This document shows, piece after piece, positions 9,854-48,667 of a stretch of DNA of 54,904 nt (within the stretch, counting starts at the first letter, position 1; each line of letters opens with the position of its first letter). The notes below the pieces were generated by a model that was not told the DNA's origin, made no database searches, and worked only from the letters and a program-made list of their open reading frames with translations. The DNA comes from Candidatus Altimarinota bacterium (lineage in GTDB: Bacteria > Patescibacteriota > Gracilibacteria > BD1-5 > UBA2023), in contig JANNYQ010000067.1 in the NCBI GenBank assembly GCA_031410215.1, forward strand, positions 1 through 54,904, given 5' to 3'. The position numbers and the translations under genes are program-made.

Positions 9854-10711
9854 ATGAAACAATATATCTCGTTCCTCATGCTCATGGTACTCCTCGGATC
9901 ACAGAATGTACACGCTGAGAGTGGTGATATCACCAATGAAATCGCTCTCATCAATGCGAGTATCTCAAGTGAGCTAGAGCTCGACTCCGCTCCAGTACCC
10001 ATCGCAAATCCCAATATCTACACACCATGGGAACTCGTCCATCGCAGTGCGATGCTATCAGGATTTCAGTGGGGTGGTGAGATAGCCAAATTCATCACGC
10101 CCAATATGTATATCGGGACTCCATTCGATATGGATCAGTCCACTCCTCTATGAGAGTTCCTCGTAGAGGACGCCACTACATATAGTGAGTGTCTGACAAA
10201 TGAGTCATATCTCTCCTACGGGCTCGGTGAGCGAATTGAGAAAACTGATATCCTCGAACTCAAGGCTATTGCCAAAACTTGTGCTCAGCAATTCTATGGT
10301 ACCTATTTCGATGGTAAACCATATACGACTCGTGAAGAATACCTGATGATGCTCATGACGATGTTCGGTGAAGACATCTCAGTAGCTGGAGAATTCACCA
10401 ATGATGGCAAATATATAGCAGCAGGACCTGGGGTTGAAAGCGGATTCGAGAATGTAAGTCCAACTGCATGGTACAGTCCCTATCTCGCCTATGCTGATGA
10501 GATTGGAATACTCTCGACTGATGAGATCAAGTGGCAAATGGCTAAGGCTATCACAGACATAGAGGCAATCGATATGCTCTCACTATATACGGCGTATCGT
10601 ATGGGATATACGGGTGATGATATTCTCGATAGTGGAATGATTATGACTGATAGTTTGAAATATAATATCGCATTCCCATCTGAGAATGAGGTCACGATAC
10701 GTGTACAATAA
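9854..10711 (+). CDS. secreted hypothetical protein
   Basis: The signal peptide is MKQYISFLMLMVLLGSQNVHA. Two ORFs join through TGA 10151-10153. Confidence 0.6.
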
Positions 10712-10751
10712 ACATACAGATAAAAATCATACTACATATCACCAGCATATA

Positions 10752-11792
10752 ATGGAAAATACCAAATTCATAGCGCTCATCGATGAAGTCATCAAGATGA
10801 ATATATCTGATCTCCATCTCACCGGGGAATCAGTGCCACATATCCGCAATCATATCGGTGATATTGCCCCTGTAGACAAATATGGGGTGATCACCTGATT
10901 CGATATAGAGGAGATCTGTGAATTCTTGCTCGGGAGACGGTTCGATGAGCGGACTCTCGATATCTCATATGCTCAGGGGGTTGCTCGGTTCCGTGTGAAT
11001 ATGAGTCGTACAATCAAGGGGATCACGATCGCCATGCGAATGATCCCGTCTATCATACCGACTCCAACTGAGATATCACTCCCAGCATCTATCCTCAAGG
11101 CTGCTACCGCAGATAAATGAATCATCCTTATCACTGGACCAACTGGATCAGGGAAATCCACCACCATGGCAACGATACTCGACTATATCAACTCGAACAG
11201 CTCCAAACATATAATCACGCTCGAGGATCCAGTCGAGTTCGTCTATCAGAATAGAAAATCCCTCATCCATCAGCGAGAGCTCGGGAAACAATTCCATACT
11301 TTCGGTGAGGGTATCAGATCGATACTACGTGAAGATCCTGATATCATCGTGATCGGCGAGATGCGAGATCTCGAGACCATGGAGGCTGCGATCACGCTCG
11401 CCGAGACAGGACATCTCGTCTTCTCGACGCTTCATACCAATGATACCGTCCAGACTGTCGATCGTATCATCCAGTCATTCCCAGCAACATCACAGAATCA
11501 GATCCGCATGCAATTCGCACTCTCTATGCGAGCGATCATATCTCAGTTACTCCTTCCAAAAAGCGATACCACGGGTATGATCGTAGCTCGTGAACTCATG
11601 TTCAACAATGACTCTGTCCGCAATCTCATCATCCGAGGTGAGACACAAAATCTTTACTCCGTACTTGAACTCGGCAAGCAAGATGGGATGATCCTCATGG
11701 ATGAATCACTCATGAATCTCGTGAGAGAACATAAAATTTATACCAAAACGGCTCAACTTTTTATGCGAGATCCATCAAAACTTGATATTTAG
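10752..11792 (+). CDS. pilT: type IV pilus retraction ATPase PilT
   Basis: Walker A GPTGSGKST, EDPVEF, Walker B DPDIIVIGEMRD, His box GHLVFSTLHT and the PilT-type SVRNLII motif. Three ORFs join through 2 TGAs. Confidence 0.9.
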
Positions 11793-11880
11793 ACACGAAC
11801 TCTATATTTGCCAATACCAAATCTACCAATAATTGTGGTAGATTTTGTATTTTTGTATGGAGATATGCTAGACTGGTGGT

Positions 11881-14800: not shown

Positions 14801-15840
14801 CCAATGATGGGGCTGGAATAAGTAGTTTTTCAGTGTTGGATTCCCCACCAGGATACCAACATATAGCTCGTGAGTGGCAGTTCCAAAAGAAAAATGGAAA
14901 TATCGGCGATGTAAAGATAGCCTATCCGGTAGCATCCGTCCCTGCAGGATTCACGGGGACTCTCATGATGCTCGTGGATACTGATGGAGTATTCACAACT
15001 GGAGCAAGTGCCTATACAGGAACACTGAATCTTGGCAATTGGGAGTTCACACTCAATATTGCCGATATGCAGTATATAACTTTTGCGAAGTCGGTATTCA
15101 CGGATACAGTAGCTCCAGTGATCAACTCTATATCTATAGCATCTGGAGTACTCCTCCCGATCGGCAACTTCCCTCTCACTGTCACCTATAGTGATACGGG
15201 TTCTGCGATCAGTGCTGGATCATTCACCGGAAAGATCTATGCCTGGGATGGAGTGAGTGCCTGGGGAGTGACCGATCTCTCACCGACCTATATGACTCTC
15301 TCGGGAGCAGCGACGACCTCGACTGGTCGACTCACGGTATCGGGACTCCCATTTGGCAGATATCGATTCGACATCTCAGTTGCCGATACAGTCGGAAATA
15401 TAGCAACACAGAGTATCATCTACTATATCGATGCGATCGACTGGAGTATCTCATCCGATACCTACGATATCGGTACACTCTCACCTGGGCCACAGATATT
15501 CGGAACTGGAGAGATGATAGTCACAGTACGGACGGTGGGGGCTGCGTTCAATCTGAGTATGATAGGGACGAGTACTCTGACGCGATCAGCCGAGACCATC
15601 AACTACTGGAATGGTACCCTCGGATGGGGATATGACCAGTGGACTGGATCAGCATACCTCGGGACGATCATCTCAACTGGTACAGCAGGTACTCTCGCGA
15701 ATCAGGCAGTGAGTATCAATACGAACGGTCTCAAGAACACCTATACCTACCGTATCAAATACGGCAGTAAGATCAGTGCCGAGCAAGCAGCAGGGCTCTA
15801 CAATGGGAGTATGAAAATGGATCTGGTAGCGAGTTATTAA
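11881..15840 (+). CDS. giant secreted surface protein (1319 aa)
   Basis: Five listed ORFs (11881, 12601, 13471, 13693, 14833) share one frame, and every junction was checked to contain only TGA. It has an N-terminal signal anchor. The body is G/T/S/N-rich beta-type sequence with CARDB/DUF11-like and LamG-like looking segments (family call is inference). Confidence 0.75.
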
Positions 15841-16022: not shown

Positions 16023-18500
16023 TTAAGCAACTGGCTTTTCCTTGCTTTCAGCTTGTTTATCATTTTTCATCTTCGAAACATTAGGAGTATGTGACTCCAC
16101 ACTCTCTCCTAGAGAGTTCTGTTTTCTTTCCATATCTTTTTTTGTCTTTAATCCCTCTTTATATTCCTCTTTTTCTTTGCGATATTTTTTCTCATCATCA
16201 GAGATCTTGGCTGCATATTCGAATATCTTTTTCTCTACATAGTCTCGCTTCTTGGTATACTTCTCACGAGAGACCTTCAGGAGGACATCACGAGACTGCT
16301 GTGGAGGGGTGTCAATCTGCTCATGGAGTGGGGCATAGGTCGTGGCTGAGAAAACGGGCGATGGCATACCATCGATGAGGAGCTTGGTATAGATATCGTA
16401 TTTGCGTAGATTGGTCAGATCGTGAGGAGTGATCACATCTTCACCGCCGAACACCTCAGCGAATTTCATCGCATCATCATGTCCGACCTGGAACGAGATC
16501 AGTGATCCCACATTCCCGAATACTGCTCCCTGTACGGTCTCCGGCATTTGAGCGATATACTGATTTGCCATCGTGAGGGAGAGCTTGTATTTGCGAGCCT
16601 CGGAGAGGATGGTAGCGAACGAGTCCGTGGCGAAGTTCTGAAACTCATCGACATAGAGACCAAAATCCCTGCGATTCGCCTCAGGCGTGTCCGCTCGGGT
16701 CATCGCCTCGATCTGGAACTTGGTCACCATCATCGCTCAGAGGAGTGCGGATGCATCTTCTCCGATTTTACCCTTCGACAGATTCACGATGAATATCTTC
16801 CCATTATCCATTATCCAACGGAGTGAGAACGGATTTTTTGGCTGTCCGAGAATATTGCGGAGGATAGGGGATGAGAGGAACTGTCCGACTTTATTCAATA
16901 TCGGATTAATCGCCTCGCTCATCTGTGCTGGTGCCATCTTCTCGAACTCATTTGTCCAGAATTGTATGAGAATTGGGTCTGTGATCTTCGATACTACCTT
17001 GCGTCTATATGACTCATGGGTCAGCATCAGCGGGATGGAGATCAGCGTAGTATCTGGGATCAGCAGGAGCGTGAGGATCGTATTGCGGAGGATATACTCG
17101 AGCCTGGGCCCCCAGCTCTCGGCGAACATCTTTTTGAAAATAGAAACGAGTCCCGACGCTACAATCGGACGCAGTTCAGGGTTGGGATTATCAAGCATAT
17201 TGAACGCAATCGGATACTCCGTATCAGACGGGTCGAATAGTACGATATCGTTGGTTCGAGACTTCGGGATATTAGCGAGGATCGTATCAGCGAGATCTCC
17301 ATGCGGATCGATGAGGGCAATACCTCGTCCTGACATGATATCAGAGTAGAGCATATTTTCCAGAAGTGTGGATTTTCACATTCCAGTTTTTCCTATGATA
17401 TAGGTATGACGAGCTCGGTCGATCGGCTGGATAGCGAATGCCTCGGTCGATCCTCGGAAATTCGACAGTCCAATCGGAGTATTGGGTGCTCAGGTATGAG
17501 GCAGGTTGTGGGGTGGTTCGAACCGGCGAGTTGTGACCCAGTTGACGCCTGGAGTCCGTACATAAATCGTCGGCATATGTACGAGTCCTGCGAGCTCCGT
17601 CACAGACAATATGCTCCGATATTTGGAGTATTTTTTGAGAGTTTTAGCGTAGATCGTCTGATATGGCCTCCCCGTGATCAGCTTGGCTCCGTTGGGCTGA
17701 GAAAATATATGGAGACTCGATGCAAGTTCCCGAGTTGTGGTACTCGTCTGCCCGAGCGAAGCCAGGATGATCTGCGTCGAGTAGCCATAGCTATCGAACT
17801 TGCTCTCATTCGTTTCTCGTTTTTCTTTTTTATCACTCATACTATGTTCATCCTCAATGTGAGATCCTCATGTGAGGAACGAGGCCAGATGCGCCAGTAG
17901 ACTAAAGGGGAATGCAATCACTCGAATCCACCACCAATTCGCGAGGAGGAACACCTTGGCAAAGTCAGGAATATGCATCTCTATGATCGATCTGGAGGTA
18001 TGTTCACGCCAGTCATGATCAGAGAGCGGAGAGAAATCAACACGAAGAAATACCGTCTCCGTTTTCGCCGATTTCGCGAGAACCGAGGTAATTCCTGAGA
18101 GTGGATCGATTCCCTCTTTTTCTGTACGGTCCTTGAGATTGGCATAGATCTTGATCGTATCGCCCGAGATATGAGGGAGTCGAGCTTCTTGCACTGAAAT
18201 CTGAGCATCGATGGCAAAAGGGAGTACCGCCTCAGTGATCTCGATATCACTATAGTGAGCATAGAGCTGACTCTCGAGGAACTGTCTATGATTAACCCGG
18301 GTCTCGAGAAAAAATCTGATACGACTCTGGTGATGCACCACAAAAAACCGAAACTGTGGACGGTTATGGGGGAGAATATCCCACCAAGCAGCGTGTGAGT
18401 CATGAAGGGTATCATGGAGGGTCGAGAGCATCTCACGAGCGACGAACACTCACTTCTCATTGGCTCTATCCACCGCGATTTCGAGGATCACTGTATTCAT
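16023..18500 (-). CDS. type-IV-coupling-protein-like P-loop ATPase (VirD4/TraD/TraG-like), paralogue 1
   Basis: 825 aa in one frame from ATG 18500, joining 4 ORFs through TGA. Walker A reads GKTGM[G]KST (TGA 17376-17378). Also IDPHGDL, Walker B LYVDEFQNFAT and ANQYIAQ. It has a lysine/glutamate-rich C-terminal tail. Confidence 0.8.
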
Positions 18501-18570
18501 AAGGAATATTTTATAGAAAACCCTTGAAAAAGCCAATTGCATTTTTGCATATTTTTCCTATAGTGCATCT

Positions 18571-33575: not shown

Positions 33576-34781
33576 TTACTCAAAGTCAGCGAGTGAAATA
33601 CTCGTTGATATTGATATGGTTGGATCTTCATTTCGCAGTGTGCGCCTCTTACCCGCTGAGAATCCCATCTCAAGATTCATCCGTACATAGGGATGAATGA
33701 AAGGGCTGATTTGAGTGGTCCCCTGAATGGCATCAGGTGCGGACCAAGACAGCCAAGGATCTTTTATGGGATACGCTTGGAATGAGAGATATTTTACATT
33801 GATTGTATTTGGAAACATATTGACCCACTCTACGCCAGATCCAGTTGCGATATCATCGATACTGGGTGATGTGAGTTGTGGTCATATACATTGACCATCC
33901 TCCACACATACCCAAGTATCGATGAGTCCATCATAGGCACTACGATCTGTAGTGAGTCAAGAGTGGGTATATCCGACGTCAAGTCATTTGAGCTTGAGCA
34001 CTTGGACATTACCGATACATCCACTCCCTGTGAGCAATTTACCACTTGCTGTTGTAGGAATCGGAAAACAAGGAATAGTTATATTATTCAGATCTTGTTG
34101 TATATTCCAACGAAAATAGGTCCTCTTTTTGGCTCACTTATTGATGAGATAGAGCTCCACTACTGATCCCGTGAATACAGCTGGTACATCTCCTGTAAGT
34201 CGATCATCATCATCTCAGATGATACTCCCACTGGCATCACTATCCTCATCTCCCAGATCATCATCGATATTGCCATTGTAGTCAGTGAACTGAGCAATAT
34301 ATTCACCGTATCGCTGATATGATCAGCTGAAATCAGAAAAAGATCCAGTGAGATATCAAGCTCATCCGTTATTATGATTTTGTAAACATCATCCAGTTCC
34401 CATACTAGCCCCACTATTCGATCGACAGAGATATACTCCTATGCCATATGTTGCTGAAAGATTTCCATTTTTCCCATAGTTGCCCACTCCAGTTGGGAAC
34501 TGGTATTGTCCACTCTGCGTAGTGACTCCTACTGCCTTACGATTCCAATATTCCTCATAGTCGAGAGTTCCTCAGTCTTTGATACCCGTGAAGAGCTGCT
34601 CAGAGAAGAAATAGAGCTCCTCCAGAAGTGCTACTCGATTAAGTGTCTTGGTACGAGCTATCATGAGGCTCTGTACGGCCAAAATAACGCTCGTGATGAT
34701 CATAGCAAAGAGAGTCATCGATATCATGAGCTCAAGAATAGTGAATCCTTTTTTATTTTTGGTTGACAATATTGCGATCAT
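33576..34781 (-). CDS. large type IV pilin-like protein (prepilin N-terminal methylation motif)
   Basis: MIAILSTKNKKG/FTILELMISMTLFAMIITSVILAV is a class III signal. I translated codon by codon to TAA 33576: 401 aa with 10 in-frame TGAs. The listed ORFs 33830-34045 and 34160-34414 are in a different frame. Confidence 0.75.
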
Positions 34782-35013
34782 AGAGTTGAGAGATGAGGAG
34801 GAGTGGTACAAATAGAGCTCTTCAGAGTCGGATGGCTCGAGGATATCGAGCAAATGACTCGGGGCCTACAGAGATGAGCTCATGAGTGATGTGATGGTCT
34901 TTAGAGTTTTTTGGGAATTTTGCGTAAACAAAAATAGAAACAAGACCCCGTATACTAATACCAATATACCCAAATAAGAGCTGGGCAGTATGGATCCATA
35001 TATTTTTTGGCAT
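34753..35013 (-). CDS. small hypothetical protein (doubtful)
   Basis: ORF 34822-35013 extends through a TGA to TAA 34753 and overlaps the pilin start. One hydrophobic segment. No family recognised. Confidence 0.25.
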
Positions 35014-35779: not shown

Positions 35780-36820
35780 ATGTCCACTGTAGCAACGGAA
35801 ATCCAGGGTACATTCGAGACGATACTTGCGTCTCTCGCTGAGAAAGAGAGATCAGTCATCACTCGTCGTATCGGACTCAAGTGAGAACGTGAAACTCTCC
35901 AGGAGATCGGAGATACATATGGGATCACCCGTGAACGAGTACGACAAATCGAGGATGTTGGTATCAAAAAAATCGGTCGTATCATGCGTACGAGTACTCT
36001 CATGAAGATACAAGAGTCTGGAGAAAGGATCCTCCAAATGCATGGTGGTATTATGACTCGTGATCGACTCATATCTGCGATTATCGCAGATATCGGTATC
36101 GAATGAGCAATCAACAACAATATCATCGATGTGCTACTCCAGGCTGACTACAATCTCCAAAGATCTAAACCACAGCTCGGTACAAATACATATTTCCACT
36201 TCGCAGAAGTGACCAAAAAGATGGTAGAATCTGTACACAAAGAAGGACTCAAGTTGCTAAAGAAAAAGGGGGATATTATGGAAACTGTAGTCCTCTATGA
36301 TATGATTCATCTAGCGCTCTTTGCTCAATTTGGGAATCTTTCGAACATCATCCTCGATTCTATCATGGATATATTCCTAGATATCGTGAAAGGAGAAGAA
36401 AAATTCATCGGTCTCGAAAAATGGAAAATCCTCAATCCAGCTACCCTCAAAGATAAGGCTATATATGTCCTCAAAAAGAAAAAAGAGCCTCTACACTTTC
36501 TCGATATCGCGACTGCTATTACAGAGCGATTCGGGGAGCCAGTCAAGACCTCTACTATCCACAATGAACTCATCCGGAATGGAGAGTTCGTCCTCATCGG
36601 TCGTGGGATCTACGTTCTCAAAGACTGGGGATATAAAGATGGTACTGTTCTCGATGTAATTCTCGAAATATTCAAAAAGGCTTGAGCACCCCTTTCAACA
36701 GAGGATATCACTGATCGTGTACTCAAAGTTCGTCAAGTTAAGATCACAACCATATATATGAATCTCCAAAATAAGAAACATGTAGAACGAGTTGGTCGCA
36801 ATCTCTATACTGCAAAATAA
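35780..36820 (+). CDS. sigma-70 region-4-like HTH protein with C-terminal HARE-HTH-like domain
   Basis: ...EKERSVITRRIGLK[G]ERETLQEIGDTYGITRERVRQIEDVGIKKI is a sigma70 region 4 pattern. The C-terminus ...PLHFLDIATAITERFG....STIHNELIRNGEFVLIGRGIYVLKDWGY resembles the RNAP-delta/HARE-HTH fold. No region 2 was recognised. Confidence 0.6.
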
Positions 36821-36872: not shown

Positions 36873-38048
36873 TTATGCTCGTTTATTACTCGCGTATGAT
36901 ACCACCAGTAGAGCAAATACCACGATATGTGTCACAATGAGTACATTGAGTGCGAGGAAAATCCCACCAAGAAGAATTGCAATCTGCAGTTCTTCTATTT
37001 TATTTCTCCAAATAGTAACCAGAGCATGTCCGATCATCAATATCGGCAATATTCCATACTGAAAAAGTATATCGATGAACATATTGTGAGATGAATCGAT
37101 GCTCATGCTGCTCGGAAAATAAGAATTCACTAGGATCGAGCGATCCAGAGAAAAATGAGTTAGAATCGAGTCTGGACCAAATCATATAAGAAAAGAAATC
37201 GGATCTTTGGTCATCAAGAAAATACTCTCACGCATGAGAACGAATCGACTCGTGAGCGATAATAGCTTCTCAGGATCGAAATATATACTCGTAATATAGA
37301 GAGCAAAGAAAGTGATACTCACTATGAGTAAAAGTGATGCCAGAGGCTGCAAACGCATATATCGAAATCACTTATACAAATAGTATAATCAAGTCAGTCC
37401 TATGGCAATATAGCTCCCTGTAGTCAGGATAGCAAGACTCCAGAGTCCGAGAGCAAGCCACCTCTCAGGAGCACGAATCTGAGAGAAAAGTGGTAGGAAA
37501 AGCAATAAGTATCCTGCCACATAGTTCGGATTGCCAAGAGTACTCACAGATCGTCCTGGATATGCCGATAGCATCTCACCTCGATGATAGATATCCCATA
37601 TACCTCCCATACATTCTCCTATAGCAAGGAGAGAAACTATCACAGAAGCATATATACTCCATCTCAGGTATGATTTGAGATGATCTCTGGGACTGCCCAG
37701 CAAGAGAAGAACAAGTGAAATCACACCAAGATAAAAGAGATATCCATGATGTTTCTCGTGACTGCCCATAAGCCAATCGAGATCGAGAAAAGTAGAAAAA
37801 TATAAAGCCGATGCTATAGGAATAACAAGTAGGGCAACGATATAGGGGATATATTTGCGGAAAATATCCCAAATACGATGTGGATATCGAATCAAAATCT
37901 CGAAGTATGCAACGACGAGTAAGGTCAGGAAAAAATATACCTTGTATCGCTCAAATGAATAACTCTCTCATATAGTCACGCCAAGTGGTGAGAATGCATG
38001 AGAGAAGTAGAGTGGGAGAATAAAAAAAAGAATACGAAGTGAATACAT
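36873..38048 (-). CDS. O-antigen ligase (Wzy_C)-like polytopic membrane protein
   Basis: 391 aa in one checked frame (4 TGAs). It has many TM helices. ...SSHNMFIDILFQYGILP... resembles the O-antigen ligase loop motif. Confidence 0.65.
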
Positions 38049-38080
38049 AAATCCCACTATTATAGGTTATTAGTGGGATT
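38049..38080 (-). terminator. hairpin after the long minus-strand gene string
   Basis: AATCCCACTA...TAGTGGGATT with an 11-nt loop. It lies between the stop at 38113 and the next start at 38048. The T-tail is weak. Confidence 0.45.
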
Positions 38081-38112: not shown

Positions 38113-38319
38113 TTATTTCCCCATAAATTTCTGTATAATCATCAATGGGATCTTCTCAAACTCTGATACATAGCTGACAACACGATCAGCAAAACCAAGA
38201 ATTCCCTCTACTCGATCCATCATCCTATACACTCGGTAGAGTACCATAGAAAGGAGTGTTCCGATAGGGAGGAGGATGATCGCGAGGACCATATAGAGGA
38301 TATCGAGTGCGTTGAACAT
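38113..38319 (-). CDS. small membrane protein (68 aa)
   Basis: An intact ORF with an N-terminal TM helix (ILYMVLAIILLPIGTLLSMVL). Confidence 0.5.
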   Translation of the reverse strand: MFNALDILYMVLAIILLPIGTLLSMVLYRVYRMMDRVEGILGFADRVVSYVSEFEKIPLMIIQKFMGK

Positions 38320-38337
38320 AGGAGAGAAGATTATATA

Positions 38338-38823
38338 TTATTTCCCAGCAAGTGGATCGGTGATTGGTTGATTTTTTGGTTCGATTTTACTATAGATGGG
38401 AGTCTGCCACCAGGTCTTGATACTCAGTATATCTGTGAGATGTGCCGTCTCTTGTCATTCGAATCGGACTCGCATATCGAGTGGACTCGTGAGCCCGAGG
38501 TTGCTCGCGAGATCACGAGACTCGATGAGTGAAATATATCTCAGACGAGTCGTATCCATAAATGCTCGGGTGAGCCACACAGGAGAGAGGATTCTGATTT
38601 CCTGTGCTACAATATCCGTCTCATCATAGGCGATGATGATAGCTCGCTTCTCCGTGATGAGGGCATCATACTCTGCCTGAGACCTGATAAAAAGAGGCGT
38701 TGCCTGTACTTGATCTTCTGCGAATTCTGTGGCTTTTTGTCCATATTCCCGAGCGGTCTTGAGATATGGATCCATCTTTATGATATAGGGATTGAGTTTG
38801 TCAGTGATATTTTTCCAGTTCAT
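38338..38823 (-). CDS. hypothetical protein (161 aa)
   Basis: ORF 38455-38823 extends through a TGA to TAA 38338. No family recognised. Confidence 0.5.
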
Positions 38824-38835
38824 AGTATTGAATGA

Positions 38836-39879
38836 TTATGCATGTATTATATCAGGAGAGACTATTTGTTGCAAATCTTTTTTGGATAAATTAAGGATAC
38901 TTAGGAAATCGGATGGATATGGTGCCTCTACCGTGAGTTTTTTTCAAGTTTTTGGATGGACAAATGTCAGAGACCGAGCATGAAGAAGTTGCCTAGTGAT
39001 ACCGAGATTACGGCGGACATAGGAATTGATGCTCTTATCGCCGTAGGCACGATCGGCAAGTACTGGATGTCCGATATACGCCATATGCACACGAATCTGA
39101 TGGGTACGACCCGTATCGATGCGACACTCAAGGAGAGAAAAAGGTTGGTGGGCTGTGAATGTTTGTGATACTACATAATGAGTTATAGCACTTTGCCCTG
39201 CCGCATCGACTTGGACTTTTGCCTCATTTTTGGCATCAGGGATCCTGAGAAGTCGAGCCTTGATTGTGTCTTGTCTCTTGGTAGGGATTCAGGCTACAAT
39301 TGTATGATATATTTTTTCCATATCATGAGCCTGGAGCTCTGATAGGAGTGTCTCAAGAGCTCATTTGTCCTTAGCAATCAGCAGACATCCACTTGTATCA
39401 CGATCGATACGATGTACGAGTGCTGGGCGGAACGTGAGACTATCGTATCGTCCCTGCAGATAGTCCTGTACTTGATCGATGGTATTGGACTCTGTCGTCT
39501 TATGATCTCCTGCATGGACATTGATCCCTGGTGGCTTGTTCACTACCATGAGATATTCATCTTCGTAGAGGATGGCGAGCTTTATTCACTCTTTTTCTTG
39601 AGATAGATCCTTCGCGGCTCAGGATAAAAAAATATGAGGGTTTTTTGATTTTGTATCCTGTGCAAACTCCTGCATCTCAGTATCTGTAAGCCAAAAAGAC
39701 ACCTCATCTCAAAGTTCGAGTTTATAAGTCTGGTCTTTCTTTTTTGCATTCACCTTGATCTTGCCAGTGCGAAGCATCTTGAATATAGCACCAAGTGGAG
39801 CACCAGGGAGATATTTGCGGACGAACCTGTCGAGTCGTTGTCCAGCATCAGCAGGATGAGAGATTGGGACAGAGATCAT
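38836..39879 (-). CDS. rluD: RluA-family pseudouridine synthase with S4 domain (RluD/RluC type)
   Basis: ...RLDRFV...GKIKVN... is an S4 domain. The catalytic motif is HRIDRDTSGCLLIAK, followed by ...GRTHQIRVHM. The ATG immediately follows the TAA of the upstream pilin-like gene. Six TGAs. Confidence 0.85.
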
Positions 39880-40785
39880 TTATTGTAATACAGCGAAGTC
39901 AGTAGCTGTGTTGCTGGTAATCTGTGGGATACGAATTTGACGTGAGCGGATGTAGCCATATATCGATGAGCTTGAGTCGATGATCATATACTGACTTGGG
40001 ATACGAGTCGGTCAGAAATCAATCTGATATTCAAGAAATGGATATGATTGTCAGCCAAGTGTTACAAATGGGCGAATCATCGAGAGCTTGAGAGTACACT
40101 GGAATCCACTGCATTTTGCTCAGCTTGTACCAACTCCACTCACGAGATCTCAATAAAAATTATCAAATCTAAAGCTAGATCCAGTATTTGTAAATCCATT
40201 AAATGATGCTATTGATCTATTTAACCCTGTTATATCACTTCATCTGAAAACCTCTAATTCACCGCTCGCATAGAGCGATGCTCACGATGATCCAAATGTC
40301 CAAAGAATAATACCAGAATTACTCATCGAACTGCCGGTATTACTACTTCATGGTATATTTGCGACCCGGAAACGAAAATTCACAACTCACCATGAGATAT
40401 TCTGAGGAATCACAATCTGTACTGGCTCACCGAGAGCAATAATATTCCAATTTTTATCGAATTCACTATTTCATTTTAAAATATCGGGTACCATATTGCC
40501 ACCAGTATAGGCCGTAAGAGTCCGTCATGTCGAAGTAGTGCCTCACTCTGATCTAGTTGGTATATTCCATGGTTCTGTCCTAGTCATGGCACCATTCATC
40601 AGTTGTTCCTCGATGAGTCCTGTCGCAAGGGTATATGCCTGAGCGGAATTACCGATAGCACCGCTCGTACGCCCGAGCCCGAGTACTTTCTCGAGAAAAC
40701 TAGTCGTCAAAATAGTGAGAAGCACTACTATGATGAGTCCGACGAGGAGGGCAGAGCCCCTCTGTGAACGATTTGGATTATACAT
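39880..40785 (-). CDS. PilX-like minor pilin / pseudopilin-like protein
   Basis: The N-terminus is MYNPNRSQRGSALLVGLIIVVLLTILTTSFL (PilX_N-like hydrophobic segment). The full 301-aa frame was translated with 11 in-frame TGAs and ends at TAA 39880. The start overlaps the VirB4-like gene by 8 nt. Confidence 0.6.
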
Positions 40786-42724
40786 TTGGCTTGGTGGTGA
40801 TGATTTTCTCTTCGAAATAAGAGGACAATATCTCTATCCCGACATGTTCTCCTCAGGCAAAGAATAGACCCGTACCGACCGAGGCATTGAGGAGAATATA
40901 TTTCTCTTGTTCGGTGAGCTTGAATACATTCTGTAGTACATCGATCGATGCAGGAGACTGTTTGAGGAGGAGCTGAATAGAGGAATTCGTGACTATCGCC
41001 TTGCCATAGGATGACCCCATGAAGTCCTCGACATCCTGTGTGATTGTCGTGACCCCGAGTCCGTACTTGCGGGCTCGCTTGACCAGACCAAAAAGGAACT
41101 TCGCAGAATCTTCATATTGCATGATATTCCACGCTTCATCGACGACGAGGAATCGTTTTTTTTCACTCGATCTTGCTACGTTCCATACATAGCTGAGGAG
41201 GATATACATCGCAATGGGACGAAGGATATCATCGAGATCTCGTACTGAGAATACGACGAGACCTCACTTGAGATCGACATTGGTCGGTCGTGAAAATACT
41301 CCAGCAAATACTCCCGTCACATATTTATCTAGTCGATTGACGAGCCCTGATGCTCCATCCATTGTCTCAAGGACTGATGCAAGATCCTTGAGAAGGGGTA
41401 TCTCTTTGCCGTCGATAGAGTCATCATCCATCGTAATACCCTTAAGTGAGTAGGTCGTGATGATCGCTTTCTCGAGGAGAGCCTCTTCGTTTGGAGTGAT
41501 GACGCCGAGCATCAGACGCAGGAGTCCGATCATATTGACTATAGCACCTCTCAGGAGATCTCCGACATGAGTCTCTGAGTCCTTGAGAGAACGTGGGAGG
41601 TCAAAGGGGTTGATCTTCTCGTTGGAGTTGAGTGAAATATTGAGATATGTCCCACCTACTGTATCAACGAGTGCCTTATACTCATTCTCAGGATCGAGTA
41701 CGATCACATCTGTTCACATCATGAGGGCCCTGAGGATCTCGAGTTTCACGGCGAATGATTTTCATCCTCCTGACTTGGCAAATACACACATATTCGCATT
41801 CTCAGAGCGGAACCTATCGAATATGATCAGTGACTTGTTATGGGTATTGATCCCGTAGAATATACCATCATCCTGTGAGAGCGAGTTCGAGGAAAATGGA
41901 AATGTCGTCGAGAGTCCTTTTGTAGAAATATTACGAAACACGTTGACCTCGTCACGAGCGAATGGCCCTGTCGCAATGAATCCTTGTTCAGCCCTCAAAA
42001 ATGTCTGCTTCGTCAGAATATTGCGACCTGCAAGCATCATATCAAGCATATTTGTGAGTTTTTTCATCTCATCTTCACTCTCCGCATAGGTAGTGATATA
42101 GAGCGAGAAGTGAAAATACTTCTCTTGACCACGAGTGAGGTATTGTTGGAGCTCTTCGACATCTTGAATCTGGGCATCCAGATGCGGATCCCCAATGAGT
42201 CATTTCCCATTGTTCATCGCTCTCTGTGAGCCGAGTTGCGTGAGCCGTTTGCGGAGAAACTTCATCACACGAGCTGAGTCAACTGGATAGACGTACATCG
42301 ATATATCAAACTTCACATCCCAGTTGATAAGTGGTGAGAGCCAATTCCCCTCCAATACATCTGGATAGGCATAGGTGAATATCGTCCGAATATAAGTATC
42401 ACCGATCTGGAGCTTGGTGGCATCAATCCGCATCATAGCGGGTGCGATCGCATCCTTGATAAATGCAAGTGACTCGTTATATTCTCGCTCTGTATCCTTG
42501 AGCTCCATTGCTTCTTCTCGTGTTAGCTTGTGATCACTATCTGCAATATATGCTGGAACCACTTGAGTATTCGCCACTGGAGTCGAGATTGGCGAAAGTG
42601 TCGATACTGGCGATACTGGTACCCTCGGAACCTGAGAAGATGAGATTGACACAATAGTCTCGAGTCACTCTACGTCTCAGGTGTAATTTTTGGTGATGAG
42701 TTCTGCGAGAGTAGGAACAGGCAT
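40778..42724 (-). CDS. VirB4/TraC-like secretion ATPase
   Basis: 648 aa in one checked frame. Walker A reads AKSGG[G]KS (TGA 41762-41764). Also VLDPENEY and Walker B FLVVDEAWNI, with a P/S/V-rich linker near the N-terminus. ATG 42724 is preceded by an in-frame TAA. Confidence 0.8.
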
Positions 42725-42771
42725 ATGGTGAATATATTAGACTCGGAGGAGAAGTAGAGTTTTGTTGGATA

Positions 42772-43971
42772 TTAAATTTTCTTTTTTCAGACTCACCAGT
42801 TCCACTCCGTGATATTGCTATAGTCGATACGGTCTTGAAGATCAAGGAGTGTTTGTGGTGCTTTACTCATAGTGTTATACTCCACTACTATGAGTGTGAT
42901 ATCGTCATATTGTTTGTATTTATATCACATCCATGCGGAGAGATCGATCGTGATTTTACGAAATACATTCTCAGCAGACTTGATATCCAATCTGATAATT
43001 GATTCAATGATACGGTCAACTGAGAAAAGGAGTCAGTTTTGTTCAGATCTGTATCTCGCCTCACTGATACCGTCCGTATAGAGGATGATCAGGTCTCCGG
43101 GATCAAAGGCTATACGTTGTTCTTTGAGAATTTTGGACGAATCCTTGACCATACCGATTGCGACACCTCCACTTTTAAGTTTATAGATTTTATTCTCTTT
43201 AAGCTTGTAGACGAGGATGAATTCATGTCCAGCACCGGTATAGTACATCCTCTGTGAGGCGGCATCCCAACGCAGCATGACGGCAGTCATCATCATATTC
43301 TGTTTGATCCGAGGCTTGAGGATCGCATTGGTCTGAGCGAGGATACTCGCACCATTGGACTCAGATAATGCAAATGCTGATATCAGCGCATTGACCATCA
43401 TCATGACAAATCCTGATGGTACCCCATGTCCTGTCACATCACCAACATAGATATAGTGATTATTATCATGTCCTGCTATGATATCGAGTGAGTCACCTCC
43501 AACCTCCGTAGCGGGAGTGGTAGCCATGGCGATAGTGAGTCATGGAACAATTACATTATCTTGATTGAGGGTCTGTGCCTGGATCTCGCTTGCGATATCT
43601 ACCTCAGATCTGAGTTTGCGACCATCTCGGAGTTCTTGTTTGAATACCTTCAGAATCTGAAGTGATTTAATGAAGAATCGGATTACACTATTCATTCATT
43701 CACTCCATGAATTTGCCTGGATCTGTGGTTCTTCGGTTATACCAGTCATGAACCGAGCAATATCCTGGATCAACATCTGGATTGGACCGATATACGCCTT
43801 ATAAAGAACGAAGTAGAGTACAGGAAATTGCACAACAATAAATCAGGCAGTAAGTATCGTATTCCAATGTGCAAATCACTCCAATGGTCCACGCCCGCCC
43901 AATCCGAATAGTATAAAACTATCCAGAATAACCAGGAATATGACGATGATGAATATAATTCGATGAAGCAT
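42772..43971 (-). CDS. membrane-bound PP2C (SpoIIE/RsbU-type) Ser/Thr phosphatase with HAMP-like linker
   Basis: Two N-terminal TM helices and a HAMP-like segment. PP2C motifs GGDSLDI, YIYVGDVTGHGVPSG, LYTDGISEA and DDITLIVVE. The 399-aa frame was checked (6 TGAs). Confidence 0.85.
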
Positions 43972-43980
43972 ATATGTATT

Positions 43981-46959
43981 TTATTGAGCTATTGATGGAT
44001 CTGAAAGAATCGGGGAGAGATTGGGCTCTTCTTCGCGGACGATACCCATACGAGCTTCGAGTTCCATATCGACGTATTCCTTTTTTCGGCCATACATCTT
44101 TCGTGAGTATTCTTTGATGATTTTCGAGACTTCAGCGTTCTTGTAGGTATTGTCCCACATGGTCTTCATATCGAATGGTCTCGTTGTCGCATTGTCGATA
44201 TTGAGCTTGCAATAGGTGGTGAAGTTGGCGATACCGATGATATCTTGCTGGGAGAGGAGCGGTGCGTATTCTTTTTCCAGATACTCCGCGTCATCAGCCC
44301 CCACCTTGAACGACATGATAGTACCAGCATTGCCGAACACCGCATCCTTGATCGATGGTTTATCTCACTTTTTGCTACCATTGCCACCGATCTGGGCGAT
44401 GAACTGGTGAGCCATGATGAGGGCGAGTCTATACTTGCGGGCCTCTGAGAGGATCTCACCGAATGTATCAGTCGCGAAGTTCTGGAACTCATCCACATAA
44501 AGATAAAAATCCTTGCGTTGATCTTCGGGCATATCCGCTCGACTCATCGCCGCCATATTGATTTTTGATACCATTATGAGACCGAGGAGCTGAGCATTGA
44601 GATCTCCGATTTTTCCCTTCGAGAGATTCACCATGAGTACTTTTTGATCATCCATCACTTTTCGCAGGTTGAACGCTGATTTGGTCTGACCGATGATATT
44701 TCGCATCGTCGTGTTAGTGATGAATGGTCCGAATTTTGCTGAGAAAAACGGAATCATCTCTTGCTTTTCACGATCACCTGTCTGAGCATACTCATGTTCC
44801 CAAAAAGCTTTCACCATCACATTCTTGATTTTGGATACCTTGTATTTCATGAATGCTTCATCTACAAAAAGGCGTGGCACGTCGATGAGCGTACCCCCAT
44901 CCTCTGCATCGTCCATCAGAGTGAGACATCCATTGCGGAAATAATGCTGAATACGGGGGCCAAATATCTCATCTCCATACATCTTGATGAAAATAGAGGT
45001 AGCGTCCAGTGCAGCTCGATCCTTTTCTATAGCCTGGAGAGCGGGTTCTGTAGCGATCAGATCGAGCATATTGAGTCCGAGTGGTCGCTCATAGTCTGAT
45101 GGATCGAATATGATCATATCTTGAGCTCGTTCTTTTGGGGTGAATGCGAGTATATCCTCCACGAGATCTCCATGCGGATCGATCACACAGAGTCCATTGC
45201 CATTCCAGAGATCCTGACGAGCCAGATATCCTATGAGGACTGATTTTCACCCTCCTGATTTACCGATGATATAGTGATGTCTGCCTCGATCCTTGCGATC
45301 AAAATATATCGGTGTCTTCATATTACGATATTCATTCCATCCCATGAGCACCGCCTCCTTGTAGAGTGGAAATCATCCAAGAGTCCGTTGCGAGTCGACC
45401 TGTACTGGAGTTTTTCCAGCATCGATCGGCTTGCCCATATCGGCTCATTCTGAGAATACAGAGACCGGCATGCCCCCTATGAGTTGGAGACTTTTGTTCT
45501 CGTCACGCCATAGGTTTTTATTTTTATCGACCCTGAGGAGCGATCCATCCGTGGTGAAAATGGAACCCGTAGCATCACGCTTGTAGTCCTTGAGAATAAG
45601 AGGGATTTTCGGAAACTTGAGATTTTGAGGGATCGAGAGCATCTTGTAGTCAAGCCAGGCGATTATTGGTGACTTATTATACTTGATATCCGGGAAATGG
45701 AATATAGTTGACATCTCATCGGATGAGAACCGAGAAATCTTCTGGAAAATACCGATCAAGCGATATGAGAAGGCAAAATAACGAAGCGGCGTGAAGAGAA
45801 TACGCAACATATCCTCGATCATCTGTGGATTGTCGAGTTGATTGTTGTATTCATCGGTGAATATAGATGTCGCAGCAACGAGAGACTGGAGCCCCTGATG
45901 AGCAGACTCACGAGTATCAGATGAGACGAGGATACGAATCGACGCCTCGAACCCTGGTTGTCCCGCTGACTCCCCTACCATCTTCTGTGACTCGGTTTCT
46001 GCTTGGTTAAATATCTTGTAAGAGTCTCCACTACTGGCTCCTGGGGCATTGGATGCTGTTTCTTCATTTGATATAAAACGAGAAAAAAACCAAGAAATTG
46101 GTAGAAGTATAAAGTTGAGTCCCGACATGAGGAGTCCTCATTTGAGTCATTTTTTATATTCTCACTTTGCAACGAGTCAGGCGGCTTTTTTTGCCTTGCG
46201 ATTCCAGCTGTGGCCGAGTGGCTTCATCACTATCTGGATGGCCGCGACATCAGTTTTTTTGAGGGAACCAAAATTGTTGGTAAACGATGAGAGTGGATCA
46301 TCTTCGAAATACTTATAGGTCTTGAGCGGATAGATATCGTCGTTTCGTTTGCTGATCGATGCGGCCTCAAGAGCGTACCCAAGTGGCTTAATCTCTGGGA
46401 GATCTTCTCGGGATACCAGTTTTACCTCAGCATCTGGATAGTTCGAGGTGACCTGTTGAGTTATCAGTGTCATGTGCTCTTGATATGCCGCGAGATAAAA
46501 ATGCACTTGACCTCCAGAATATATCATCTCGAGTGATATTTTCGCATGGCAAAATATGAAGTTGAGGATGGTATTCCATGCACTAATTGTCGCGATTTTA
46601 TGGACACTTTTATAAAAAAGGGTCATGATACCAATTTTCTCTTTGAAGTCCTTCTTCGTGTCTTGTTCTTTATCGAGCTTGGAGTCAGCTCGTGGGAGTG
46701 TCACTTTCATATATCGCATTCGTGGTGTCATCATCACCTCATAGGTGAGTCGCATCAATCGGATACAGATCCAGACGATGATAATGGCAAGGAAGATATT
46801 GAGCACATTATCAAAAACCCATACTAATGAGTCCCAGAAAGAAGACCAAGGAGAAATAATTGCCTGTTCCGATCGGGTAGCGGTCCGTACGCTGATAGCG
46901 AGGACGGAGTTATAGGATGTAGGCAATATCGCAAGGATAGTGAGCAATAGTCGATTCAT
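43981..46959 (-). CDS. type-IV-coupling-protein-like P-loop ATPase, paralogue 2 (992 aa)
   Basis: ATG 46959 (MNRLLLTILAILP...) with TM segments and a roughly 450-aa region I could not assign. Walker A reads GKSGG[G]KS (TGA 45247-45249). Also IDPHGDL and Walker B LYVDEFQNFATD. All junctions were checked. The CDS ends at TAA 43981. Confidence 0.8.
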
Positions 46960-47097
46960 TGATCCATAATACCATATAGAGACTATTTCACAAAATAAAA
47001 CAGAACTTTTTGCTTTACAATAGGACAAAATCGTGCAAAAAAAGATGGTACAAAAATACACCAAATAAAAAAGTCTAATTCTTTCCAAAGTTGATAC

Positions 47098-47125
47098 TTG
47101 CATTTGATGGCTGGATATCTACAAT
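47098..47125 (+). promoter_or_regulatory. sigma70-like promoter of comM
   Basis: TTGCAT (47098-47103), a 16-nt spacer, then TACAAT (47120-47125). Confidence 0.4.
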
Positions 47126-47152
47126 ACGATCAAATCGTAATCCATCCAGTCT

Positions 47153-48667
47153 ATGCAAAAACTCTTCTCTTCATCTATCTATGGGATATCTGGTCATCTC
47201 GTGGAGGTCGAGGTCGATGTGATCACGGGTATGGGACAATTCACTATCGTTGGACTCGGAGATGCAGCGATACAGGAGTCGAGAGAGCGAGTACGGAGTG
47301 CGGTGAAGAACTCTGGATATGCGTTCCCAGGTGGAGCTCGTATCACGGTCAATCTCGCTCCCGCAGATCTGAGAAAAAAGTGACCCGTCTATGATCTCCC
47401 TATAGCACTATGAATACTCGGCAAGGATATCGATTTTCGGACAGATATTGTTTGAGAATCGCTCTTTCTGTGAGAACTGGCACTCGATGGACTCGTGAGA
47501 CCGATCCAGTGAGCCCTCCCTGCGACCATACTTGCACGAGAGCTAGGCATGAAACGGATATTCGTCCCGATGGATAACGCCCTCGAGGCATCCGTGATCC
47601 CAGATATCGATGTGATCGGGATCGCGAGTCTCTCCGATGTAGTCGGTATCCTCACAGGAGATACACCTATCCCCACATGAGCCATCAGACCAGAACCGAT
47701 AGCGAGTGAGATGCGAGTCTACTCTCCTGACTTCTCCGATATCATCGGGCAGGAGCACGCGAAGCGAGCTCTCCTTATCGCCGCTGCTGGTGGACACAAT
47801 ATCCTGATGCAGTGACCTCCAGGATCAGGCAAAACCATGCTCGCCAAAGCAATGGCAGGTATCCTTCCTGATATGCAACTTGAGGAGCAGATAGAGTTAT
47901 CAAAGATCTACTCCGTAGCGGGACTCCTCACGAGAGATCTCCCACTCATCGTGGATCGACCATTCCGAGTAATACACCATACAGCGAGTGAGGCATCGAT
48001 CATCGGAGGTGGACGAGATGCGAGACCAGGTGAAATATCACTCGCCCACAAGGGAGTACTATTCCTCGATGAGTTCCTCGAGTTCAGCAAATCCATACTT
48101 GAGACACTTCGCCAACCCCTCGAAGATGGCGAGATCACGATCAACCGTGTCAATCAGTCATGCAGATATCCTGCCAGATTCGCACTCGTGGGTGCGATGA
48201 ATCCGTGTCCATGTGGCTATATGGGAGATACTGAGAAACCCTGTATCTGCTCACCGATGGCGATCGACAAATATAGATCTCGTCTTTCTGGGCCGATCCT
48301 CGACCGTGTCGATATATTCATCCAGGTGCCTCGGGTCAAGACAGGCGAGCTCGGAGAAAAACGATCTGGTCAGACCAGTCGAGAACTCAAGGATACGGTC
48401 ATGCGAGCTCGAGAGATGCAATATATCCGGTTCGCTGGTAAGCGACTCCACTCCAATGCTGAGATGAGCAATGTCGAGATCGAATCACTGGCGAACATCA
48501 GCGAAGATGGTATCAAGATCGCCATATCATCGACAGAGAAGCTCAAGCTATCAACTCGAGTATATTACCGTATACTCCGTGTCGGTCGTACGATCGCGGA
48601 TATCGATGGCTCGCCAACTGTCGAAGTTCGCCATATTCTCGAGGCACTCTCCTATCGTGGTAGCTAA
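47153..48667 (+). CDS. comM: Mg-chelatase-like ATPase ComM/YifB
   Basis: An N-terminal Lon-like domain ([14 protein letters not shown]; FL[G]ELALDG). Walker A reads MQ[G]PPGSGKT (TGA 47813-47815). Also LFLDEF and the [10 protein letters not shown] zinc-ribbon. The frame is open through 7 TGAs. Confidence 0.9.

Follow-up and report, generated by a model that had tools for sequence, protein, structure and literature searches.

Two ATPases of the kind associated with conjugation, a membrane phosphatase and a pilin-like protein are encoded almost without spacing on the minus strand of a stretch of DNA from Candidatus Altimarinota bacterium (Gracilibacteria; assembly GCA_031410215.1, contig JANNYQ010000067.1, positions 1–54,904). 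The locus raises the question of which machine, if any, these proteins form together. We refer to the whole stretch of 54,904 nucleotides (nt) as the window. A preliminary description, made from the sequence alone, took the gene string at 38113–46959 for a self-contained, non-canonical two-motor apparatus coupled to a pseudopilin. This view was not borne out, as the locus most probably belongs to the chromosomal, relaxase-less type IV secretion system (T4SS) already described in Patescibacteria; nor does the string amount to a minimal apparatus, since further parts (PrgI/VirB3, a TrsD/TraC-like protein and VirB2-like pilins) lie elsewhere in the genomes of relatives. With a probability of about 60%, we interpret the core of the string as the ATPase module of a T4SS of this type, in which a PP2C phosphatase would act as a lineage-specific switch on VirB4, and beside which a block made of a 301-amino-acid (aa) protein gene and rluD would have been placed by rearrangement.

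The T4SS itself is therefore not new. According to Quinonero-Coronel et al. (2025; PMC12102498), a chromosomal T4SS is widespread in Patescibacteria, with VirB4 detected in 2,417 of 3,035 genomes and forming a clade nested within the monoderm MPF-FATA class. The same survey reports about two homologues of the VirD4-type coupling protein (type IV coupling protein, T4CP) per genome, only 148 of 5,713 being located near virB4, an almost complete absence of relaxases, and the occurrence of VirB2-like pilin arrays. In Gracilibacteria the components are dispersed, and the linkage of TrsD and VirB3 to virB4 holds except in this group. A 2025 review (PMC12857230) presents the system as essential in a Saccharibacterium and potentially pilus-forming; the Patescibacteria T4SS is also credited to Wang et al. 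(2023), as cited in both papers. The new elements here are the conservation of a PP2C gene beside virB4, the architecture of an ATPase carrying the DUF8128 domain, and the tie between the gene of this ATPase and pilin genes.

Motor ATPases and the membrane phosphatase

The VirB4-like assignment of the preliminary description is firm. The 648-aa protein scores 349.3 bits against the NCBIfam model NF045971 (VirB4-like conjugal transfer ATPase, CD1110 family; cut-off 325) over residues 69–630, and its C-terminal ATPase domain (residues 298–643) matches Thermoanaerobacter VirB4 (PDB 4AG5) with E = 2.2e-44; Pfam P-loop_TraG and AAA_10 match as well. The Walker A (AKSGGGKS) and Walker B (VVDEAW) motifs are invariant among 12 homologues, and all named close homologues come from Gracilibacteria. 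On sequence grounds, the protein is a genuine monoderm-type VirB4. Its N-terminus carries a clade-specific peptide, LAELITKNYTGDVEG (42675–42724), followed by a variable S/P/V-rich linker, which is the P/S/V-rich stretch remarked on earlier. The consensus of this peptide, L(A/I)ELIxK(N/R)(Y/I)(T/S/N/D)GD, is shared by VirB4 proteins of the clade with PP2C and is missing from TrsD-linked VirB4s. In the window, tblastn found no PrgI or TraC-like/TrsD homologue, and no Pfam match to VirB3/PrgI, VirB6 or VirB8-type partners was obtained among the scanned open reading frames (ORFs). Likewise, no relaxase and no VirB6/8/10 was found among these ORFs, which are a subset of those in the window and in which a 394-aa polytopic protein (36873–38057) was not tested as VirB6. 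About 5 kb separates virB4 from genes for PrgI and a TraC-like protein in HHAS10, a relative.

The identification of the 399-aa protein as a membrane PP2C phosphatase is equally solid. It scores 137 bits with Pfam SpoIIE (PF07228; cut-off 25), its best PDB match is the PP2C domain of SiaA (6k4e), and its nearest solved relatives are the phosphatase domains of SiaA, Rv1364c and RssB. All 26 orthologues compared (38–77% identity) retain the metal-binding motifs GGDS.D, GD.TGHGV, LYTDG.EA and DDITL without change, and the catalytic site is intact. Orthology to sporulation SpoIIE or to SiaA fails (TIGR02865, 32 bits versus 490.8; NF038263, 44 versus 700). The N-terminus consists of two hydrophobic transmembrane (TM) helices joined by a short loop, leaving almost no extracytoplasmic loop, and the HAMP domain claimed in the preliminary description gave no Pfam match at E <= 0.01. 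Across the 26 orthologues, the linker after the second helix retains the pattern Y..PI..L...I..F..G, and the C-terminal peptide ITEWNW (42772–42790) is conserved. Both ITEWNW and the N-terminal peptide of VirB4 are conserved at the protein level with free synonymous change among 22 distinct sequences, from 21 loci and the window. As the cause of the peptide conservation, a nucleotide-level element at the PP2C/VirB4 junction was considered and rejected, since synonymous sites vary freely.

For the 992-aa protein, the T4CP-like label stands in part. Its C-terminal half is of the VirD4/TraG type and passes the threshold of Pfam T4SS-DNA_transf (PF02534; 38.2 bits versus 20.1, residues 560–897), with DUF87 matching too. 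It is nonetheless divergent and misses the curated cut-offs for CD1115 and TraD, scoring 31.6 bits against 366 for TIGR03743; of the solved structures, TrwB matches only the P-loop region (residues 555–601; E = 3e-4 with a single sequence and 6e-3 with a profile). The Walker A and B motifs are unchanged in all 52 homologues compared. None of the profile searches reassigned either ATPase to an unrelated or defence family; PADLOC yielded only weak mad8/HerA superfamily matches, and a reassignment to defence systems was rejected. Two N-terminal hydrophobic segments (residues 4–22 and 48–66) correspond to a signal or TM segment and one TM anchor. Unlike in T4CPs, where the anchor leads directly into the nucleotide-binding domain, a domain of about 450 aa intervenes before the ATPase half. 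This front half, left without assignment in the preliminary description, is Pfam DUF8128 (PF26449), which every close homologue carries according to precomputed annotation.

Structure models were built from database orthologues 92–96% identical to the window proteins. The DUF8128 model, covering residues 1–530 of a 92%-identical orthologue, is weak (predicted local distance difference test score, pLDDT, 60; 13 sequences). In a Foldseek search of the PDB its top 14 chains were all TrwK/VirB4 of the R388 T4SS (probability 0.99–1.00, E from 3e-5 to 2e-3), with alignments of about 440 columns and TM scores of only about 0.3; the next match had E = 0.03. As the query lacks an ATPase domain, it can only be the N-terminal domain of VirB4 that is matched. 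Comparison of DUF8128 with the VirB4 N-domain and with TrsD by hhalign gave no signal, but the positive control, TrsD against the VirB4 N-domain, failed too, and the test is thus uninformative rather than a refutation. We treat the resemblance of DUF8128 to the VirB4 N-domain as a lead from modelling.

Within Gracilibacteria the DUF8128 ATPase shows 58–96% identity, and its standard-code counterparts in Peregrinibacteria/Peribacteria share about 67% of residues with it, whereas neighbouring proteins fall to 26–60%; at loci where it retains about 70% identity, ComM, RluD and the 301-aa protein reach only 26–59%. Judged by these alignments, it is under unusually strong purifying selection.

Gene order in related genomes

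Loci from related genomes were compared, 80 species-representative ones centred on the T4CP-like gene and 80 metagenome ones centred on virB4 (160 in total), with neighbouring genes located by tblastn or hidden Markov models; 72 of the T4CP-centred loci were informative. The arrangement of the window, in which the T4CP-like gene is followed by PP2C–virB4, was found in 11 of the 72. At 40 loci the T4CP-like gene is followed by a PF18895 T4SS_pilin (VirB2-like) gene, often in arrays of two or three. The remaining 21, mostly from Peregrinibacteria and Peribacteria, have neither; at one such locus that was inspected, the DUF8128 ATPase gene lies among housekeeping genes. The strong conservation of the DUF8128 ATPase, together with its VirB2-like pilin neighbours, suggests that it is a core constrained part rather than a dispensable coupling protein. 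Taken with the resemblance of DUF8128 to the VirB4 N-domain, the same neighbours suggest that this "T4CP" may handle pilins instead of receiving substrates.

The PP2C gene is situated immediately 5' of virB4 wherever virB4 is present at a T4CP-centred locus, and also at 12 VirB4-centred loci with VirB4 at least 65% identical to that of the window. The flanks of this pair fall into three contexts, namely the T4CP-like gene directly upstream, as in the window; a T4CP–T4SS_pilin–RadA order (group B); and divergent ftsA-ftsZ (group C). At the approximately 60 loci where VirB4 is at most 57% identical to that of the window, PP2C is absent and a TrsD/TraC-like gene mostly lies directly upstream, often behind PrgI (VirB3). 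The replacement of TrsD by PP2C upstream of virB4 matches the published remark on TrsD and VirB3 in Gracilibacteria (PMC12102498). Gene order is thus kept for PP2C–virB4, the only stable pair of the string, within one Gracilibacteria subclade, while the complete order T4CP–PP2C–VirB4–301aa–RluD is limited to the close clade of the window.

Two side observations concern these contexts. In six group B loci, radA/sms is placed between the T4SS_pilin gene and PP2C (T4CP–pilin–RadA–PP2C–VirB4), and radA together with divergent comM puts two recombination or transformation helpers at one T4SS locus. In four further Gracilibacteria loci (at about 3.2–6.3 kb), PP2C–virB4 is divergent from ftsA-ftsZ.

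The 301-aa protein had been called a PilX-like pilin, of which the prepilin-like leader remains plausible and the PilX assignment does not reach threshold. N-termini of the family (51 representatives) read MKKNNK(G/A)↓FSL..., with a short basic leader, a hydrophobic stretch and no Glu5; the window protein has SQRG↓SALLVGLIIVVLL. An AlphaFold2 model of an orthologue (pLDDT 82) contains a 56-residue N-terminal helix (residues 7–62) and then a β-rich head, for which Foldseek returned nothing significant in the PDB. PilX_N matches 14 of 57 close members at E <= 1 (best 0.0071), none above the cut-off of 25.5 bits, and a single member of 51, again below threshold, in the wider family; the GspK model gives 18.8 bits versus 130. 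The family comprises 385 clusters among 1.84 billion representatives. "Prepilin-like, GspK/PilX-style" appears a fair description, with membership below the model thresholds. An alternative assignment as a diverged VirB2-like T4SS_pilin of equal size was rejected, since phmmer detected no similarity and the architecture differs. PilD is not encoded in the window.

The 301-aa gene and rluD are always found together. In groups B and C and in HHAS10, the 301-aa gene directly follows an N-methyl prepilin gene, beyond comM or 160 kb away, and its overlap with virB4 is confined to the close clade of the window (eight loci). With the N-methyl prepilin gene and rluD as its older partners, the overlap is likely derived. 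The 301-aa protein is most likely a type IV pilus minor pilin that was placed here by rearrangement.

Layout of the string and its surroundings

Read with translation table 11, the region breaks into short fragmented ORFs; long ORFs emerge on the minus strand when stops are restricted to TAA and TAG. The use of code 25, in which UGA encodes glycine, is borne out by alignments: UGA at Gly571 of the Walker A motif in the 992-aa protein pairs with G in 18 standard-code homologues, the sole other match being recoded itself, and the glycine of YTGD in VirB4 is encoded by GGN in some orthologues and by TGA in others. UGA is glycine in this genome. The homologues that bear an organism name all come from Candidatus Gracilibacteria/Altimarinota. 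The resulting string contains seven minus-strand ORFs and not the nine genes counted previously (Table 1).

All junction distances given in the preliminary description are exact. The T4CP-like and PP2C genes are 9 nt apart, PP2C and virB4 47 nt; virB4 and the 301-aa gene overlap by 8 nt, the ATG of rluD (39879) directly abuts the stop codon of the 301-aa gene (39880), and gaps of 12 and 18 nt precede the 161-aa and 68-aa genes, respectively. The five tabulated gaps of the string rank among the 8 smallest of 25 same-strand gaps in the window. However, about 91% of the window is coding and its same-strand gaps have a median of 53 nt; close spacing by itself is therefore a poor argument for an operon. 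The hairpin behind the last gene was confirmed (10-bp stem, ΔG −13 kcal/mol, z = −2.45), although the terminator scan of the region did not pick it up. Rfam and tRNA scans revealed no RNA genes in the region. Neither rluD, a housekeeping gene, nor the two small ORFs has an evident link to secretion; orthologues of the 161-aa protein are present in four related loci.

Table 1. Features of the gene string and of its surroundings in the window
Feature	Position	Strand	Remarks
992-aa DUF8128 + VirD4/TraG-type ATPase (T4CP-like)	43981..46959	−	
399-aa membrane PP2C phosphatase, SpoIIE/RsbU/SiaA family	42772..43971	−	
648-aa VirB4 ATPase, monoderm MPF-FATA, CD1110 type	40778..42724	−	
301-aa prepilin-like protein	39880..40785	−	
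347-aa RluD-family pseudouridine synthase	38836..39879	−	Pfam PseudoU_synth_2, 112 bits; S4 domain
161-aa protein	38338..38823	−	No Pfam/NCBIfam match
68-aa single-TM protein	38113..38319	−	One hydrophobic segment; no Pfam/NCBIfam match
Hairpin 3' of the final gene of the string	38049..38080	−	T-tail poor
comM/T4CP-like divergent intergenic region	46960..47152		Promoter-like boxes 46993–46966
ComM/YifB, Mg-chelatase-like AAA+	47153..48667	+	Pfam Mg_chelatase, 306 bits
839-aa paralogue, DUF8128 + VirD4/TraG, no N-terminal TM anchor	16023..18542	−	TrwB_AAD_bind, TraG-D_C, T4SS-DNA_transf above cut-off
392-aa PilT-like T2SSE ATPase	10614..11792	+	
N-methyl prepilin-like protein (KKG↓FTILE), encoded by the ancestral partner of the 301-aa gene	33576..34853	−	Pfam N_methyl, 6.5e-7

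The preliminary description recognised no VirB6/VirB8/VirB10-like component, relaxase or PilB/PilC/PilD in the window; genes related to those of the string are nevertheless present outside it, namely those of a second DUF8128 ATPase and a PilT-like T2SSE ATPase and a canonical N-methyl prepilin gene. The ATPase half of the 839-aa paralogue, which passes PF10412 and PF12696, is 40% identical to that of the 992-aa protein, and the N-domains of the two align in hhalign with a probability of 100. The paralogue gene stands alone between a SufBD gene and the gene of a 1319-aa protein; its orthologues are found near the RluD/301-aa/prepilin block in three related loci. The 1319-aa protein carries a signal peptide and has no Pfam match; encoded directly after the PilT-like gene (together 10614–15840, plus strand), it may be a pilus-associated adhesin. 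No VirB2-like pilin gene was found in the window, which also encodes EF-G, NusA, PyrG (CTP synthase), UvrA, RecF, YidC, a CNNM transporter and tRNAs and is chromosomal.

Upstream of the T4CP-like gene, a TGTAAAG-N2-AAAA motif (about 47009–47019, minus strand) is invariant in 9 aligned sequences, comprising the window and 8 orthologous loci. The motif precedes the −35-like box of the T4CP-like gene by about 20 nt, is followed in several loci by an AAATAT...ATATTT inverted repeat, and may serve as an operator. A 346-aa Sigma70_r4 and HARE-HTH protein (35780–36820, plus strand) may regulate this neighbourhood; at many Gracilibacteria loci it is conserved (62–92% identity) and encoded beside either the prepilin block or comM. 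Just beyond the string, the 394-aa polytopic membrane protein mentioned above (minus strand) has about nine hydrophobic segments and no Pfam match; it is conserved in two related loci, and a weak homologue lies 3' of virB4 in one of the loci with divergent ftsA-ftsZ (L101).

Proposed function, alternatives and known systems

In the interpretation we favour, VirB4 and the DUF8128 ATPase would power one pilus-bearing T4SS, the VirB3/PrgI, TrsD and VirB2-like pilin genes of which would be encoded outside the window, and the system would serve host contact or uptake rather than conjugation. PP2C, anchored in the same membrane, would remove Ser/Thr phosphate from a T4SS-associated substrate and thereby gate the VirB4-dependent assembly or activity, by analogy with PppA of the threonine-phosphorylation pathway of the type VI secretion system (T6SS). 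It may dock through its C-terminal ITEWNW and the NYTGD of the VirB4 N-terminus. The 301-aa gene, rluD and the two small ORFs would stand outside the machine, their block having moved beside virB4 by rearrangement in the close clade. We infer regulation by phosphorylation from the conserved adjacency only.

Several observations weigh against this interpretation. Conserved adjacency in one clade is inseparable from shared ancestry, and promoter and terminator scans across the region remained at background level. The window yielded neither a kinase nor a STAS/SiaC-like substrate or FHA protein. Some orthologues have N or D in place of the threonine of NYTGD, which is therefore not an obligate phosphorylation site, and in two loci VirB4 has a degenerate N-terminal peptide and no adjacent PP2C. 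In three diverged genomes, the two DUF8128 ATPase genes and the prepilin block lie within about 13 kb, and a proximity kept at such divergence makes a looser functional link between them possible. Lastly, PP2C and virB4 of group C are 140–500 nt apart and oriented divergently to ftsA-ftsZ, which would allow a separate promoter or a division-related role of the phosphatase.

We consider it unlikely that a stronger version holds in full, in which PP2C would be a dedicated T4SS switch (the first phospho-regulated T4SS) that replaced PrgI-TrsD in one Gracilibacteria lineage and docks via the co-evolved peptides ITEWNW and NYTGD, and the highly conserved DUF8128 protein would be a hybrid of VirB4 N-domain and VirD4 ATPase that deals with VirB2-like pilins rather than a receptor for substrates.

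An alternative we also hold to be unlikely is that the synteny carries no functional meaning: genes would be adjacent through compact packing, PP2C would act in partner switching or in cell division in the manner of SpoIIE and FtsZ, and the two ATPases would work independently of PP2C and of each other. The compactness of the whole window fits this explanation, as does the minority status of T4CP–VirB4 adjacency, both among our loci (11/72) and in the published survey (148/5,713; PMC12102498). So do the Peregrinibacteria locus that was inspected, where the DUF8128 ATPase gene is alone among housekeeping genes, and the finding that the T4CP homologue of S. epibionticum is non-essential while other T4SS genes are essential (PMC12102498). 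The position of group C PP2C, divergent from ftsA-ftsZ, points in the same direction. In B. subtilis, SpoIIE binds FtsZ, and a link of PP2C to division is possible. However, the PP2C–virB4 pair outlasts three flank contexts while its surroundings change, PP2C occurs only in the clade where PrgI-TrsD vacated the position upstream of virB4, and both PP2C and VirB4 carry clade-specific conserved terminal peptides.

Somewhat less probable still is a DNA-uptake machine, in which VirB4 and the T4CP-like ATPase would form a ComB/Ced-like importer feeding host DNA to recombination helpers. ComM is a branch-migration helicase of natural transformation, and its gene forms a divergent pair with the T4CP-like gene at 21 of the 72 species loci; however, this link is missing in more distant Gracilibacteria and in Peregrinibacteria. 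Similarly, the presence of radA between the pilin gene and PP2C is limited to one small clade, group B, and the weak matches of VirB4 to the archaeal DNA importers CedB and CedD lie far below cut-offs. The lack of a relaxase among the scanned ORFs and the co-localisation of ABY1-class T4SS loci with comF, recG and radA (PMC12102498) would be in keeping with uptake. Against it, the T4SS of S. epibionticum is essential, yet the loss of ComEC-dependent transformation is not lethal (PMC12857230).

A remnant of a conjugative or integrative mobile element, which the conjugation signature of VirB4 plus a VirD4-like ATPase and the best VirB4 match to CD1110, of the integrative and conjugative element or conjugative transposon (ICE/CTn) type, might have suggested, is effectively excluded by the syntenic chromosomal position in many species and the strong conservation of both ATPases (69–74% identity where neighbours show 32–62%); moreover, neither a relaxase nor an integrase or repeat boundary turned up in the ORFs scanned, housekeeping genes lie on both sides, and the GC content of the region (0.43–0.46) falls inside the range of the window.

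A T4SS regulated by PP2C, as we propose, would matter because, of all T4SSs, only that of Patescibacteria is known to be essential to the organism that carries it (PMC12857230); a phosphatase gene held beside virB4 offers a concrete, testable handle on its regulation. The words "phosphatase" and "phosphorylation" do not occur in the 170,000-character T4SS review (PMC12857230), and "phosphatase", "SpoIIE" and "DUF8128" are missing from the main text and two text supplements of PMC12102498, with PF07228 likewise absent from those supplements. Our literature search returned no paper on DUF8128 and, for VirB4 and PP2C together, only two co-mentions, both incidental.

Among known systems, the threonine-phosphorylation pathway of the T6SS in Pseudomonas aeruginosa comprises the kinase PpkA, the PP2C phosphatase PppA and Fha1. 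Our locus is comparable in placing a PP2C gene within a secretion-system ATPase locus, which suggests post-translational gating as a functional analogy; it differs in the secretion system concerned, in that neither a Hanks kinase nor an FHA protein was found, and in the membrane-anchored, RsbU/SiaA-like nature of the phosphatase. The 301-aa protein resembles the minor pseudopilins GspK/PilX in its leader, its Glu5-less helix, its size of about 300 aa, the combination of a long helix with a β domain, and the N-methyl prepilin gene that adjoins it in relatives, whereas its globular domain gave no match to a solved pilin. TrwK/VirB4 of R388 (7o41–7o43, 8rtb, 8rtd) provides the sole significant structural matches of the weak DUF8128 model; in TrwK the N-domain precedes a VirB4 ATPase, and in the 992-aa protein DUF8128 precedes an ATPase of the VirD4/TraG type. 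With the conjugative T4SS of Gram-positive bacteria represented by CTn2/CD1110 (MPF-FATA), the locus shares a VirB4 above the CD1110 cut-off, the 4AG5 match and a VirD4-like partner; it differs from it in that the scanned ORFs of the window include no relaxase, VirB6/PrgH, VirB8/PrgL or VirB1 hydrolase, and in having no mobile-element context. The closest counterpart is the chromosomal T4SS of Patescibacteria, with which it agrees in the monoderm-type VirB4, the T4CP homologues, the lack of a detected relaxase, the chromosomal site and the pilins of relatives, and from which it departs in the adjacency of T4CP-like gene and virB4, a minority arrangement, in the PP2C gene directly upstream of virB4, and in the DUF8128 domain of about 450 aa on the T4CP-like protein. 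The pairing of PP2C with VirB4 and the conservation of the DUF8128 ATPase refine the current picture of this T4SS without overturning it.

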